DNA of 64,000 nucleotides from Picochlorum sp. SENEW3 (taxonomy: Eukaryota), in NCBI GenBank assembly GCA_034226945.1, contig CP120456.1, positions 310,001-374,000 of the forward strand, written 5' to 3'. Below, piece by piece: positions 1,490 to 52,196 of this stretch (position 1 is its first letter; each line of letters starts with the position of its first letter). Below the pieces are notes generated by a model. The model worked only from the letters and a program-made list of their open reading frames with translations. It had not been told where the DNA came from and made no database searches. A program made the position numbers and the translations under genes.

Positions 1490-1931
1490 GATGTCCCATG
1501 CAATAATCTCACAGCTACTCCTACTGAGAGCAGTACATTGACAGGTGTTCAACAAAAATGAGAGCAAATCGATATATGTGTGCGACAACGTATCGATTTT
1601 GGGAATGGAAAGGGCACGCGGCCATACATGCAGGAACGTGCCACCTGGGAATTGCACAAGTGTCCGAGGAGGACGCCATCCATGCCTGTCTCGGAAGGAT
1701 CCAAAATTCCTTACTTGATACATTAAAAAACCCTATTGATAAAAAGGCACATTAAAAAACAGACAAGATAGACACTTCTGATACGTTATGGATTCAATAC
1801 TTCAATATAGTAGCAAGATTTTATTACATAGGGAATCATACGCTCACAGCGATCATCATCATCTGCCCTCTGTTTGCTGCTGCTGAGTTTTTCCTGAATG
1901 ATTTGAAACTCAGCTCAAGTACAGAGAGAAA

Positions 1932-2899
1932 ATGCGAGCAGAAGCGTTTGTAACAGGTCCTAAAATTGAAATTAGAAAATTAGATGAGGCAACGTGCGAG
2001 TTTTACTTGACCGGGACGGATGTTAGCATCGCAAATGCCTTGAGGCGGGTGATTTTGGCAGAGGTGCGGCGCTGTGGGTCATGAAACGCTGGATCCTTAT
2101 GCACAAAGCTTACTGTTTTATCTATTTTTTACAGGTACCAACGATTGCCATAGAGCTTGTTGAGATTGAGACGAATACGACTGTGTTGAACGATGAGTTT
2201 CTTTCTCATAGACTCGGTTTGATTCCGCTGGTCAGCGTGGATGTGCATAACATGAAGACAATCTACGAAGCTGGAGAGGATGAAGAGGTTCAGGATGTCG
2301 TGATGTCACTGGATATTGTGTGTACAACGGAAGATACGTTGAATGTGACGAGTAATGATCTCATCCTGGACCCATCGTATCCTAGGGTAGCTCCTATTGG
2401 GTACCATGATAGAGATGCGCGGGGTATTTTGATTGTGAAGATGAGAAAGGGGCAAGAATTGAAGCTGAGGGCTATTGCAAGGAAGGGTATTGGGAAGGAT
2501 CATGCTAAATGGAATCCGGTTGCAACTGCTGTGTTTCAGCATTTGGCAGAGATTAAGATTGATAATGCAATGCTGTCGTCGTTGACGGATGAGCAGAGGG
2601 ATGCGTTGTGTGATGCAGATCCGAAGGGGACGTTCAAGCATAATAGAATAGCGCAGACGATAGAAGTGGAAGATCCAGAACTGTATCAGTTTGATGGGGA
2701 GGTACTTGAAAAAGCAAATGAATTAGGTGTTCCTGGGGCGATTGATATTATTCAACGGGAAGATGCATTTTTATTCAAGATTGAGAGTACTGGGGCTCGT
2801 CCTGTTGCTGATATTGTGACGAGTGCATTTGAAGTTTTGCAGCATAAATTAGTCACGTTGGAGAACGGTTTGGAACATTTATTGACTCAAAATGTGTAA
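1932..2899 (+). CDS. RPB3: RNA polymerase II subunit RPB3
   Basis: Exon 1 1932-2063 (SIANALRRVILAE), intron 2064-2134, exon 2 VPTIAIELVEI..DEFLSHRLGLIPL..GIGKDHAKWNP. Confidence 0.93.
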
Positions 2900-47034: not shown

Positions 47035-48645
47035 TTAAAGGTTGTGCTGATCTTGATATTTTTCACGGCGGCGAGCATATTCTGCTAGTATTGCTTGTAA
47101 TCTTTCTAGCCGTTCCTGTTTTGTCTCTTCCTCTGATTCGTGTTCTGCTTTCCCTACTTGTCCTTCCACTTCTGTTCTTGTCCCATCTAGATGTCTCTTC
47201 TCTTCTTCTCCTGCCACATCCTGTTTCGTGTCTTCACTCACTACTGCTTGCTCCTTTTCATCTTCTTTACTCTGCAATTCTACTTTCCCTTGATTCTGTG
47301 CCACTTCCTGTAAGTGTTGAATGTCTTCCAGAGCTTTGTTTGATATCTTGTCGAGTTGAAGGTCAAGGATGCTGGCGAGAGGAGTGTCATCGTTGGTGGG
47401 AGTATTCTTTTCGAGTGGTACAACTTTGTAAGATGCTACCTCTGGCTGTTTGATTGTCTCTGGCTGTTTGATTGGCCCTGGCTGCTTGATTGGCTCTGGC
47501 TGTTTGATTGGCCCTGGCTGCTTGATTGGCTCTGGCTGTTTGATTGGCTGTGGCTGTTTGATTGGCCCTGGCTGTTTGGGAGGCTTTTCTGGGACTTTGA
47601 TCCGATGGTACCCAAACGCCTTCTCGAAATCATCAATCATATTTTCATTCACAGCATGAATCACATTTTCTTCATGCTCTGAGAAAGATCTCTTGAAATA
47701 CGTGATACCATCAACAAGCTTGGATAGCTGAAATCCACTCTCTCCACGAGCCACATGGCCACTGTAATCACTTTTTGTCCGCACCACGCCTTCTTTCAGA
47801 GGCCATCCGGTCATTGTCGCTATCCTCCATACATAATGCTCTTGGTGTATCGGCAGCACATTATCCTCACTGTGGACCATCATGATGCAGTCCGTGAGCT
47901 CTGCTGCTTTCTCAAGATAGTTGCAGTATTTCTCCTTCCGCATCACCATGAGATTCTCGAAATGATATTGCCCAACATGGTCTCCTTTGTGCCACTCAGT
48001 CCCAACAAAAGCAGCTGGATTGCCTCTGTTCTTCTCCTGAGGCCCACAATTATAACACTCCTTCAACATACTCCGTGTATAGTCATATGGATTTTTAATG
48101 GAAATAATTGATAATCCCTTCTCATACGTCCCATTTTTCTGTATCTCATGCTTATGTTTATTGATACCATAATCAATATTCGCTGTATCTTTCGCCAGAC
48201 CTGTTTTGTTGAACACCAACTCGAAATTCCTGACTACCAAATGTGCTGCGAGGTTGGTAGCACTGTGGCGTTCACCCAACACGTGTATCCTCGGTGAAAT
48301 ACCCATCTGTGTCTGATTCGTCACCTTGTTCAGAATAGGATACACCTTATTGCGACACGTTGTGAACACTTCTTCTGGAATGTTGAGATTGCAAGCAGCA
48401 TTTATAGCACTCAGGTCAAACATTGGTTGAAACACAAACTCCTCAGTTATCCTTGCCCCTTCTTTGACGCGAGATTCATGAAGGGGACTCAAAATTACGT
48501 ATTCATTTCGCTTAGGCAACGCCAATAAGATACAAATCAAAGTCAGAAGCAACAGCAAGCTCAGAGTCAACGTCCGAGCAATGCCGTTCCAAACACGCGT
48601 GCTCATTTCCCCACGTCTGGCTTTCATGAAGGGCATTACTTGCAT
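47035..48645 (-). CDS. Type II membrane protein with sulfotransferase-like domain and Pro-rich repeat linker
   Basis: N-terminal TM; IHVLGERHSATN (5'-PSB-like) and SIKNPYDYTRSM (3'-PB-like); intronless. Confidence 0.6.
   Translation of the reverse strand: MQVMPFMKARRGEMSTRVWNGIARTLTLSLLLLLTLICILLALPKRNEYVILSPLHESRVKEGARITEEFVFQPMFDLSAINAACNLNIPEEVFTTCRNKVYPILNKVTNQTQMGISPRIHVLGERHSATNLAAHLVVRNFELVFNKTGLAKDTANIDYGINKHKHEIQKNGTYEKGLSIISIKNPYDYTRSMLKECYNCGPQEKNRGNPAAFVGTEWHKGDHVGQYHFENLMVMRKEKYCNYLEKAAELTDCIMMVHSEDNVLPIHQEHYVWRIATMTGWPLKEGVVRTKSDYSGHVARGESGFQLSKLVDGITYFKRSFSEHEENVIHAVNENMIDDFEKAFGYHRIKVPEKPPKQPGPIKQPQPIKQPEPIKQPGPIKQPEPIKQPGPIKQPETIKQPEVASYKVVPLEKNTPTNDDTPLASILDLQLDKISNKALEDIQHLQEVAQNQGKVELQSKEDEKEQAVVSEDTKQDVAGEEEKRHLDGTRTEVEGQVGKAEHESEEETKQERLERLQAILAEYARRREKYQDQHNL
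47441..47577. repeat. 18-bp coding tandem repeat, about 7.5 copies, encoding KQP(G/E/Q)PI
   Basis: Units such as TGGCTGTTTGATTGGCCC / TGGCTGCTTGATTGGCTC. Confidence 0.92.
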
Positions 48646-48827: not shown

Positions 48828-49295
48828 TGGTGTGTCACATTGAAGCCATACTAGCAGTCATGGGCCACCCAGAACACATCATCATCGATACATCTATGTA
48901 GTAATAACCTTCATAGATGGTGACAATGATGGGTGCATCCCAACGCATTGGTATGAAGAAGAATGGCCTCCCATGGCACTGGGGTCAACAGTGGACACCT
49001 GATGGGTGGACTGGCATGACAGATCCCATAACGCATTGGCGAATACACTGTCATGAATACCATCATTAGTACAGTATGTAGATGAGAGAATAGAATCCAG
49101 CGAGTATATGCTGTGCAGTGTTTGTCTTTCTTTTACCATCATTGGGATGGGATTTGAATCAAGAGATATTCTGTGCTGACGTGGCTTGCCAGGCCACAAT
49201 CGATTCCGGAACCTACATAGACAATGCTGGGCAAATAGCTCGGTATTATGAATACCAAGTTTAATCTGATATAAAATAACACGCAATATATACAA

Positions 49296-50645
49296 ATGAT
49301 TCAGCAAAATACGAGAGACTCAAGACGTAGGTTGCTTATTCTTGGAGCAGCTGGTAGAGACTTTCACAACTTCAACGTCTTGTATCGGGATGGCCCATCG
49401 GACGTGGATGTGGTGGGGTTCACGGCGACGCAAATACCTAATATAGATAGTAGAAGGTATCCATCCTCATTGGCGGGGAAGTTGTACCCAGAAGGCCTGC
49501 CCATTTGGAAGGAAGATGATCTGGAGGAGGTGATTCAGCATCAGAGAGTTGATCAGTGTATGCTGGCATATTCTGATCTTGAATATTCCAAAGTGATGGA
49601 AATTTCTAGCAGATGCTTGTCTTCCGGAGCAGAGTTTGTACTGATGCCTCCGCAGAAGACCATGGTTGAATCATGCAAGCCTTTGATTGCTGTTTGTGCA
49701 AGCCGTACAGGATGCGGTAAGAGCCAGGTGTCGCGATATATTATCAACGCGTTGGAGAAGCAAGGAAAAAAGTGTGTTTTGATTCGTCATCCAATGCCGT
49801 ATGGGGACTTGGCGGCACAGGCGGTTCAAAGGTTTGGCACTCTTGAGGATTTGGAGAGGCACCATGTGACAATTGAAGAGAGGGAAGAGTATGAGCAGCA
49901 TATTGTGAAAGGAACAGTCGTGTATGCTGGGGTTGACTATGAGGCGATACTTCGGCAAGCTGAACAAGAAGCTGATGTCGTCATTTTTGATGGAGGGAAT
50001 AATGATACCCCGTTTTATAAACCAGACCTATGGATTTGTGTGTGTGATCCACATAGAGCTGGACATGAGTTACAATATTATCCTGGGGATTTGAACTTGA
50101 GGTGTGCTGACGTGGTTGTCATCAACAAAGCGAATACAGCACCTAGCGGATCGATAGATGTGATCAAAGCAAATATTGAAAAAGTGAATCCTACAGCTCG
50201 GTGCTACATCACATCCAGTGTTGTGTCTGTTGATGATCCTGACATCATCCGCGGAAAACACGTTGTCGTTGTCGAGGATGGCCCCACATTAACACATGGA
50301 GGTATGAAGTATGGAGCTGGGAAAGTGGCAGCAGATGCTTACCACGCTGAGATCGTGGATCCAAGGCCATATCTTGTTCGCAGTCTTACAAAGACTCTGG
50401 AAAAGTACAGTCATATTGAGCAGGTCATTCCAGCAATGGGATATTTCCCTGATCAAATTAAGGATCTTGAGGAATCAATCAACGCGGTTCCTTGCGAAGC
50501 CGTCATCATAGGGACTCCCATGGATTTGCAAAAGGTTGTACATATCACAAAACCATGCGTTACCGTCACCTATGCTGTTGAAGACACAGAGGAACCTTTC
50601 CTCAAGGAAGAGGTTATGAGTTTTATTTCAAAGCATGTCAAGTAG
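49296..50645 (+). CDS. COG2403 P-loop enzyme (cyclic 2,3-DPG synthetase-like family), arginine synthetase ArcE-like
   Basis: LILGAAGRDFHNFN, FTATQIP..RRYP..LAGKLYPEGLPI, ASRTGCGKS P-loop, IRHPMPYGDL, TIEEREEYE, DGGNNDTPFY, VEDGPTLTHG, PAMGY; intronless. Confidence 0.82.
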   Translation: MIQQNTRDSRRRLLILGAAGRDFHNFNVLYRDGPSDVDVVGFTATQIPNIDSRRYPSSLAGKLYPEGLPIWKEDDLEEVIQHQRVDQCMLAYSDLEYSKVMEISSRCLSSGAEFVLMPPQKTMVESCKPLIAVCASRTGCGKSQVSRYIINALEKQGKKCVLIRHPMPYGDLAAQAVQRFGTLEDLERHHVTIEEREEYEQHIVKGTVVYAGVDYEAILRQAEQEADVVIFDGGNNDTPFYKPDLWICVCDPHRAGHELQYYPGDLNLRCADVVVINKANTAPSGSIDVIKANIEKVNPTARCYITSSVVSVDDPDIIRGKHVVVVEDGPTLTHGGMKYGAGKVAADAYHAEIVDPRPYLVRSLTKTLEKYSHIEQVIPAMGYFPDQIKDLEESINAVPCEAVIIGTPMDLQKVVHITKPCVTVTYAVEDTEEPFLKEEVMSFISKHVK

Positions 50646-50696: not shown

Positions 50697-52196
50697 TTAT
50701 GCATCACAGAAGAATGAAGAGGTGCTGCCTCCAAGGATGTATGTGTCCACAAAACTGTACAAGGATCCTGCCACCAAATACCCAGTGAGGATAATTCCAA
50801 ACACAGATATGACGTGTAAAAAACGATTGCCAACCCAGTCTTTCAACTGTTCTTTTCCAATCTTGTACAGTTTCAACCCATAGTACCAGCACAGTGTTGG
50901 CAGGCAGGTCTGGCTGCCACTGACTGTGAATGCCACTACTATACTCGTCAATACTTCAAAGTCTGGGATGCAAAGTGTGACAATAAGCGCTAGAATTGAA
51001 CTTGGCAGGGTAAAAACGAAATGGATAAGATATTTGTACAACTTTGATGCTTTCTCTTTGGCAGGAATTGTCTCACGGCACCATGGAGAGACAGTGAAGA
51101 GAAGGTTTCGTTGGAAATCGTTCACCACAAGAGCCCCAGCGATATAGTCAATTATGGATGCCAAAAACACGAAAATATTGATTGCTATGGCCAGCCCTTC
51201 CCTTGGAAACATGAGCGTTACAGGACTGGTAACTGGATATCCCAGCATGAGAGCACCAGTGAGTCCTGCCACAGCATACAAAGTACCAAAACCGATCAGG
51301 GCCCCCCATGTCGCATTTCGTGTCTGCAATGGATTTTTCATTTCCCAAGTCAGTTCGGTCTGAATAAAGATGGGTGCTATTCCCCAAATTATTGAGCTGA
51401 GACCCATTGAAAAGTCATACCAGTCATTATACCCTGATGGTGCTAAAAAAGGTTTGGCACTTCCAACATACGATGGAGAGGATTTAATATCCCCACTGTA
51501 TATTGCATATGCCCAAGGTAGCAATACAAGTGTTTTGATAGAAACCAACAATGATCCGCCATAGGCAAGTGTCGCATTGTGTTTCCATACTTTGACAACT
51601 TGCAAAACAAGAACCATGAGTGCAAACATAAGCAAGGTCCAATACCCCAAACAGTTCCATGGAAAGTTGGCTACATATTGTATTGATGTAGCCATTAAAT
51701 TCAGCATAACCATCAGCAGAGCGTACAAGTTTGCGAGTTGAAAGCTCCGAAGCAAATATCGTCCAAGTTTTCCACCTAGCCTTTCTCCAACATCACCCAA
51801 GGTCGTGCAAGGCTCTGTGTATTCTGTCCCGTTTGCATCTGTAGTCCTAAGTTGGACATCAGCGATCAACTTCACAATGATCATACAGATGATGATGTAA
51901 AATATCAGCATCAGCAGTGCAAATATGTACCCCATTGTTGCAAATGCAAATGGCATGCCAACAACTGCTCCTGAAGTCTGGAATGTCAGTTGCATCATCA
52001 GCGTGTCCCAAAAACCCAAGTTCAATCTTGATTTTGGCTCATATGAATGTATTCTGCGGTACCGACGAGTGGCATGCTCCTCGCCATCTCGTATCCCTTT
52101 CAACTGGTTGCGCCCATTTTGAATCTCCGTCGTCCGCCCATCTGGCACTATGACCCCATCTTCAAGTTGTTCTGGCTGCATTTCTTGCTGATACAC
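50697..52196 (-). CDS. Amino acid/auxin permease (AAAP, Aa_trans) family transporter
   Basis: About 11 TM segments; TSGAVVGMPFAFATMGY, TLGDVGERLGG, ELTWEMKNP. Confidence 0.8.
   Translation of the reverse strand: MYQQEMQPEQLEDGVIVPDGRTTEIQNGRNQLKGIRDGEEHATRRYRRIHSYEPKSRLNLGFWDTLMMQLTFQTSGAVVGMPFAFATMGYIFALLMLIFYIIICMIIVKLIADVQLRTTDANGTEYTEPCTTLGDVGERLGGKLGRYLLRSFQLANLYALLMVMLNLMATSIQYVANFPWNCLGYWTLLMFALMVLVLQVVKVWKHNATLAYGGSLLVSIKTLVLLPWAYAIYSGDIKSSPSYVGSAKPFLAPSGYNDWYDFSMGLSSIIWGIAPIFIQTELTWEMKNPLQTRNATWGALIGFGTLYAVAGLTGALMLGYPVTSPVTLMFPREGLAIAINIFVFLASIIDYIAGALVVNDFQRNLLFTVSPWCRETIPAKEKASKLYKYLIHFVFTLPSSILALIVTLCIPDFEVLTSIVVAFTVSGSQTCLPTLCWYYGLKLYKIGKEQLKDWVGNRFLHVISVFGIILTGYLVAGSLYSFVDTYILGGSTSSFFCDA

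Follow-up and report, generated by a model that had tools for sequence, protein, structure and literature searches.

Arginine synthetase (ArcE) was described in 2024 from Thermococcus kodakarensis, a hyperthermophile, where the enzyme (TK2200) works in the ArcE-ArcB-ArcC pathway (Michimori, Yokooji & Atomi 2024; PMC11032458; PMC13260591). ArcE interconverts arginine, ADP and Pi with citrulline, NH3 and ATP; the equilibrium lies toward citrulline and ATP, the characterised enzyme has a Ks for ammonium of ~110 mM, and homologues are stated to exist in 'a few eukaryotes' (PMC11032458). A comparable route is the classical pathway of arginine deiminase (ADI), ornithine carbamoyltransferase (OTC) and carbamate kinase (CK), which converts arginine to ornithine, CO2 and NH3 with a gain of ATP and has been reported complete in Chlorella variabilis and Coccomyxa subellipsoidea, both of them green algae (Novak et al. 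2016, PMC5052871). The downstream enzymes are common to both pathways. Unlike ArcE, however, ADI is a hydrolase of unrelated fold that performs the first step without energy conservation, and compared with the ADI pathway ArcE would yield a second ATP per arginine. The cyclic 2,3-diphosphoglycerate (cDPG) synthetase of Methanothermus fervidus (PDB 8ork, 8oru, 9sxb; PMC10690619) represents a distant paralogous family, with another substrate and another phyletic range, and was treated as a distant outgroup of ArcE by Michimori et al. (PMC11032458). Here, we describe an ArcE-like gene of the green alga Picochlorum sp. SENEW3. The gene lies in a 64,000-nt stretch of DNA (assembly GCA_034226945.1, contig CP120456.1, positions 310,001 to 374,000 of the forward strand), which was analysed as a whole and is called the window; positions below are those of the window.

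The gene most plausibly encodes a cytosolic, arginine-degrading arginine synthetase of the ArcE family that is derived from prokaryotes and vertically inherited within the Trebouxiophyceae, a reading to which we assign a probability of about two in three (0.66). By sequence, modelled fold and conserved residues, the protein belongs over its full length to the 'predicted GTPase' family, in which ArcE is now placed, and is not a cDPG synthetase. All 8000 of the 8000 candidates scored in a protein-collection search had E <= 0.001, and the matches listed span 91-100% of the query, with only one of them below 94%. Full-length relatives number in the thousands in this collection, the majority named 'predicted GTPase' and some 'cyclic 2,3-diphosphoglycerate synthase'; 3350 representatives match at E <= 0.001, and 494 reach E <= 1e-30. 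Bacterial and archaeal proteins that carry the JGI name 'predicted GTPase' match the algal protein over its full length with 56-60% identity, and the clusters obtained from the ESM Atlas were all named 'putative GTPase'. We take COG2403 to be the corresponding label. All six motifs quoted in the preliminary description of this DNA (6/6) were found again in the 449-aa protein. Furthermore, of 69 columns with at least 90% conservation across 78 other members of the family, 66 hold the consensus residue in the algal protein, the deviations being V130L, W231F and G362R. In the homologue alignment A1, residues D328, G329, P330, T331, T333, H334, G335 and M337 of the EDGPTLTHGGM segment are invariant. 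We read the INKANT segment as NKxD-like, the nucleotide-base motif of P-loop proteins of the SIMIBI/G3E type.

The AlphaFold2 model of the protein, built with 79 sequences, has a pLDDT of 95.3 and a pTM of 0.93. The modelled structure adopts a P-loop NTPase fold like that of LpxK (4EHY) with an added N-terminal domain, and the same resemblance to LpxK has been reported for the TK2200 model (PMC11032458). An ATP-dependent P-loop enzyme is predicted, in which a Rossmann-like domain at the N terminus is joined to a nucleotide-binding core of the LpxK/HypB type.

The connection to TK2200 itself is indirect; besides the conserved columns above and the gene context below, it runs via named crenarchaeal homologues and a list of genera. 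The algal protein shares 46% full-length identity with homologues of Hyperthermus butylicus and Ignisphaera aggregans and 44% with that of Pyrodictium occultum, and both Hyperthermus and Pyrodictium are named among the holders of arcE (PMC11032458). The search that led to these homologues started from a protein of a Thermoproteota MAG, the one named entry in the clusters of 10 representatives, and yielded names from Desulfurococcales and Ignisphaera but none from Thermococcus. Full-length homology to proteins of the listed genera thereby places the algal protein in the family of TK2200, with which it also has the signature motifs in common.

The genomic context of prokaryotic relatives points to arginine metabolism. 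Two peptide patterns, RHPMPYG being one of them, retrieved 598 relatives in genome contigs, and the best 80 loci, none of which came from Thermococcales, were analysed; their products are 53-58% identical to the algal protein. Flanking open reading frames (ORFs) of at least 150 aa (n=633) were clustered and representatives of the 18 recurrent clusters were scanned against Pfam. By this procedure CK was found in 15/80 loci, OTC in 11/80 and either of the two in 19/80. In all 16 of these 19 loci whose arcE ORF was retained in the clustering, CK or OTC lies on the strand of arcE. In two loci (L001 and L012) CK directly follows arcE and had been missed by the overlap filter; L001 raises the total to at least 20/80, which is a lower bound because many locus flanks are short. 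In addition, CK gave a strong match in four of the five whole genomes behind these loci. The nearest prokaryotic relatives occur in arcE-arcC/arcB gene groups, as ArcE does. Arginyl-tRNA synthetase is encoded near arcE in 4/80 loci. In L060, L072 and L079, all from Chloroflexota, its gene shares the strand of arcE and lies directly upstream; in L064, from Bathyarchaeota, it lies downstream on the opposite strand. An amino-acid permease was found near arcE in three of the 80 loci and a class-III aminotransferase in five.

Unlike its prokaryotic counterparts, the Picochlorum gene is eukaryotic and nuclear and stands alone, without an operon, and its host is a green alga and not a hyperthermophile. 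The best protein match is a 'hypothetical protein' of Picochlorum sp. BPE23, 98% identical and encoded on a 1.24-Mb contig. Among the other large ORFs of the window are those for MTR4, BRAP2, Fip1, a CTLH/RING protein, acetolactate synthase and a plastid-type sigma factor. The GC content of the window is even (42-49%), the GC content at third codon positions (GC3) of the ArcE-like ORF is 0.444, like that of neighbouring ORFs, and its codon usage correlates with that of 11 pooled neighbouring ORFs (r = 0.84). Because of the eukaryotic neighbours, the BPE23 match and the host-like GC3 and codon usage, the ORF is a resident nuclear gene and contamination is excluded, which bears out its earlier assignment to a green algal nuclear genome. 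The ORF had also been described as intronless. It aligns with homologues from end to end, contigs from four sequencing runs show no joint inside it, and an in-frame stop codon lies 7 codons 5' of the ATG.

Homologues are present in several Picochlorum species, among them Picochlorum soloecismus (cluster of P0005, 71% identity), and in Nannochloris desiccata, Micractinium, Chlorella variabilis, Parachlorella kessleri, Botryococcus braunii and two Coccomyxa species. Outside the green algae they were found in the fungus Hyaloraphidium curvatum, in Cantina marsupialis and in 'Trimastix_PCT' (P0040, EukProt). Phylogenetic relationships were studied at three levels. A FastTree phylogeny of 231 rows combined the window protein, 120 matches, 42 representatives of 400-480 aa (drawn from 150) and 68 locus ORFs. 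A quick IQ-TREE run used 101 rows, namely the 87-row clade around the window protein and 14 randomly drawn named outgroup loci, and a careful IQ-TREE run used the 70 rows left after removal of 31 near-duplicate or outgroup rows. In the careful tree (supports given as UFboot/SH-aLRT), a Chlorellales-type clade of 17 rows with Hyaloraphidium inside it received 98/96, and its union with Coccomyxa and Botryococcus (23 rows) 99/88. All named eukaryotes minus Trimastix fall into a clade of 34 rows (100/95) that includes many rows without a named origin. The grouping of this clade with the Methanotrichaceae and Trimastix groups (47 rows) is unsupported (31/4), and the addition of a Myxococcales/'Deltaproteobacteria' group gives a clade of 53 rows with 99/94. 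One member of the 34-row clade without a named origin, P0022 (97% identical to L082 7917-9329), is encoded on a 72.7-kb metagenome contig that also encodes SMC and RMND1/DUF155, gives a weak match to Spc7 and looks eukaryotic. The sister of the Hyaloraphidium sequence (P0014) was P0022 in the 101-row quick tree (SH-aLRT 94) but P0008 in a 70-row quick tree, so that only its nesting within the chlorellalean clade is solid; it may reflect an alga-to-fungus transfer.

A second Picochlorum-like copy on the metagenome contig L081 has 85.6% nucleotide identity to the gene, with a dN/dS of 0.095 over 385 codons. The gene is old within the Trebouxiophyceae and under strong purifying selection. The preliminary description had considered a horizontal acquisition. 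The trees agree with an ultimately prokaryotic origin, and an ancient transfer from prokaryotes is the only transfer supported. The view that this alga received the gene recently is contradicted by three observations: homologues occur across the Trebouxiophyceae, the tree broadly follows the relationships of these algae, and codon use is host-like.

The reaction predicted for the algal enzyme is the conversion of arginine, ADP and Pi to citrulline, NH3 and ATP and its reverse. By analogy with cDPG synthetase and LpxK, its chemistry would involve the passing of a phosphoryl group to or from citrulline's ureido oxygen. In the alga, the enzyme would most likely run toward arginine breakdown and ATP formation: the first guanidino nitrogen would be set free from arginine, whether stored or imported, and the citrulline would be passed on to OTC and, if present, to CK. 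The physiological roles proposed in the preliminary description, nitrogen storage and ATP supply in the dark or under anoxia, are hypothetical. Most Trebouxiophyceae species have genes for the aspartate-argininosuccinate shunt, and arginase and urease are lacking in the species examined, with the exception of Chlorella ohadii (PMC12366059). The catabolic direction is suggested by these gene contents together with the reaction equilibrium and the poor binding of ammonium. A cytosolic location, proposed earlier along with the lack of an obvious targeting peptide, is the simplest reading of a protein without an N-terminal extension, since the conserved domain begins at about residue 12, as it does in the 10 other eukaryotic homologues compared.

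Database names of related proteins suggest functions other than arginine synthesis or breakdown. Several close homologues are named cDPG synthetase by NCBI, and this enzyme is the only relative of solved structure that was found by sequence. The phmmer match, however, amounts to 38 bits (E 1e-8) and is confined to residues 222-361, with 14-16% identity in structural alignments, whereas proteins with an ArcE context score 570-680 bits; moreover, cDPG has been reported from hyperthermophilic methanogens only (PMC10690619), and the host is a green alga. Activity as a cDPG synthetase is therefore improbable in the extreme, and the earlier assignment to the ArcE type instead of cDPG synthetase is upheld by the low identity to the latter and by the arginine-pathway genes beside prokaryotic relatives. 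We take the alga to be mesophilic. The 'predicted GTPase' label could alternatively denote a metallochaperone of the G3E/SIMIBI type (CobW/HypB/UreG-like), in favour of which the cobW and HypB models of Pfam and NCBIfam give weak matches. Neither Pfam nor NCBIfam holds a model for the protein, which produced only sub-threshold matches to cobW, HypB, DEAD and thymidylate-kinase models. All of these lie under the curated cut-offs (cobW, PF02492, 17.9 bits against 20.7; hypB, TIGR00073, 15.4 bits against 121.2) and span only part of the core, the ArcE-like protein carries family-specific motifs and, at its N terminus, an additional domain, and the characterised family member is a metabolic enzyme (PMC11032458). 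A metallochaperone role is thus very improbable. The NCBI name 'cyclic 2,3-diphosphoglycerate synthase' is attached to many ArcE-type proteins (for example P0052, P0074, P0092, P0094, P0425 and P0433), including ones from Myxococcales and Polyangia, and looks like a systematic mis-annotation.

Two further alternatives stay within the ArcE family. The enzyme could perform the same ATP-coupled chemistry on another guanidino/ureido pair, such as agmatine/N-carbamoylputrescine, homoarginine/homocitrulline or canavanine. The algal clade is just 44-46% identical to the crenarchaeal homologues and is without an assayed member, and arginine is already handled by ADI in Chlorella and Coccomyxa (PMC5052871). 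Nevertheless, the OTC, CK and arginyl-tRNA synthetase genes beside the closest prokaryotic relatives point to arginine and citrulline, and nearly all highly conserved columns of the family are kept, which makes another substrate pair unlikely. The enzyme could also run anabolically and combine citrulline with free ammonia at the expense of ATP; the arginine formed in this single step would store nitrogen when ammonium is plentiful. Reversibility of the reaction agrees with this, T. kodakarensis makes arginine in this manner when given citrulline, and such a role has been proposed for a few bacteria without ASS/ASL (PMC11032458). The high Ks for ammonium argues against it, as does the presence of the shunt genes in most Trebouxiophyceae (PMC12366059), and co-occurrence of ArcE with ASS/ASL has been argued to mean arginine breakdown (PMC11032458). 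We consider an anabolic role to be quite unlikely and prefer the arginine-degrading synthetase.

The distribution of pathway partners in eukaryotes is relevant to this preferred function. Among green plants, CK has been reported from Chlorella variabilis and Coccomyxa subellipsoidea only; it branches apart from that of other eukaryotes, and the OTC of the two algae is sister to that of Chlorobi (PMC5052871). An ArcE homologue and ADI are both present in Chlorella variabilis; in Coccomyxa, ADI is known from C. subellipsoidea and the ArcE homologue from two other species. Trimastix marina and Paratrimastix pyriformis have OTC and CK and lack ADI according to the same source (PMC5052871), and 'Trimastix_PCT' has an ArcE homologue, which could be the missing first enzyme beside OTC and CK. 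This co-distribution of ArcE, CK and OTC suggests an arginine synthetase pathway instead of or alongside the ADI pathway in these eukaryotes. The strain PCT is presumably T. marina. A more far-reaching proposal is that trebouxiophyte algae including Picochlorum have a complete cytosolic pathway of ArcE, OTC and CK that gains two ATP per arginine, and that the eukaryotic genes go back to a single old transfer from prokaryotes and then spread among eukaryotes, one such step leading from a chlorellalean alga to the fungus Hyaloraphidium. We regard this combined scenario as tentative and, on balance, doubtful. If it held true, the complete pathway would explain two puzzles raised by the work of Novak et al. 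(2016), namely the restriction of CK to Chlorella and Coccomyxa among green plants and the possession of OTC and CK without ADI in Trimastix and Paratrimastix.

Several observations weigh against the assignment as a cytosolic, arginine-degrading arginine synthetase. Orthology to TK2200, the only characterised member of the family, depends on the named intermediates and the published genus list, and the eukaryote-containing ArcE clade is without any assayed enzyme. Chlorella and Coccomyxa also possess the classical ADI (PMC5052871). Algae related to Picochlorum thereby differ from prokaryotes, in which ArcA and ArcE are complementary, and this contradiction puts the need for ArcE in question. 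The OTCs of two Chlorella species reportedly had no measurable citrulline-to-ornithine activity (PMC5052871). With the Methanothrix CK adjoining arcE in L001 as the query, no named eukaryote was among the best 120 matches; this search neither shows nor excludes CK in Picochlorum. None of the 24 large window ORFs scanned encodes CK or OTC, and a literature search for Picochlorum and CK found nothing. The Trimastix ArcE sequence comes from a transcriptome and could be of bacterial source. As for transcription, positions 49848-50088 are matched, with 3 differences, by a single 241-nt contig of a metatranscriptome (random-primed RNA-Seq); this is weak evidence, and such libraries can include DNA. 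In run X3, whose library kind is unrecorded, contigs begin at 49245 with none upstream, which is a hint only; run X7 yielded a 33-nt match in the ArcE-like ORF only. The 'RNA?' labels of these runs are guesses, and X1 is probably DNA. Finally, the amino-acid transporter gene adjoining the ArcE-like gene is no conserved neighbour of it when compared with L081.

Table 1. Positions in the window of the ArcE-like gene, of the motifs and predicted domain of its product, and of neighbouring features
Feature	Position	Strand	Remarks
ArcE-like (arginine synthetase family) gene	49296..50645	+	Single exon; 449 codons + TAG; ATG start
N-terminal Rossmann-like domain (predicted)	49323..49655	+	~Residues 10-120
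GAAGRDFHNFN	49344..49376	+	Residues 17-27, within the N-terminal domain
Walker A / P-loop RTGCGKS	49704..49724	+	Residues 137-143
Family signature RHPMPYG	49785..49805	+	Residues 164-170; invariant in alignment A1
Family signature EEREEYE	49875..49895	+	Residues 194-200
Walker B-like DGGNND	49989..50006	+	Residues 232-237; invariant in alignment A1, nearly so in A2
INKANT	50121..50138	+	N277 and K278 invariant in A1; weak cobW/HypB Pfam match spans residues 240-302
EDGPTLTHGGM segment	50274..50306	+	Residues 327-337; includes EDGPT (327-331)
TGTAA	50659..50663	+	14 nt after the ArcE stop codon; candidate polyadenylation signal
Aa_trans (PF01490) amino-acid transporter gene	50697..52196	-	499 aa; convergent; 51 bp downstream of the ArcE stop codon
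536-aa ORF	47035..48645	-	Hydrophobic N-terminal segment; no Pfam family matched
Tandem repeat	47440..47578		Within the 536-aa ORF; 7.7 copies of an 18-bp unit

Coordinates are collected in Table 1. The TGTAA pentamer, which we take to be a possible green-algal polyadenylation signal, lies inside the spacer between the ArcE-like gene and the convergent transporter gene, and the 3' ends of the two genes would therefore nearly abut or overlap. A functional link between ArcE and this transporter was considered and rejected, as the 88%-identical relative on L081 has HemD (uroporphyrinogen-III synthase) downstream and tblastn found no transporter there. The HemD of L081 is spread over two adjoining ORFs in different frames (1624-2527, plus strand), probably split by a short intron. 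The tandem repeat within the 536-aa ORF encodes hexapeptides of the PIKQP[EG] type.

The enzyme family is already known, and what is new is an algal member with a testable pathway hypothesis, which makes the finding moderately interesting. The surprise of an ArcE in a green alga is smaller than was assumed in the preliminary description because eukaryotic homologues were already mentioned in the paper describing the enzyme (PMC11032458). No paper dealing with ArcE in an alga or any other eukaryote came up in our literature search, judged partly by titles and abstract openings. We know of no eukaryotic ArcE that has been characterised. Public annotation of these proteins is uninformative or wrong ('hypothetical protein', 'GTPase', 'cyclic 2,3-diphosphoglycerate synthase'). 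A mesophilic and easily expressed algal ArcE would allow a direct test of the generality of a reaction known from a hyperthermophilic archaeon, and concrete and cheap predictions follow from the co-occurrence with CK, otherwise unexplained in Chlorella and Coccomyxa, and with the 'missing ADI' in Trimastix. In many algae, arginine serves as the main nitrogen-rich amino acid for storage. Since arginase and urease are lacking in the surveyed Trebouxiophyceae, with one exception (PMC12366059), an ATP-conserving step from arginine to citrulline would alter models of nitrogen remobilisation and of dark or anoxic energy supply, in Chlorella-type production strains as well as in bloom-forming Picochlorum.

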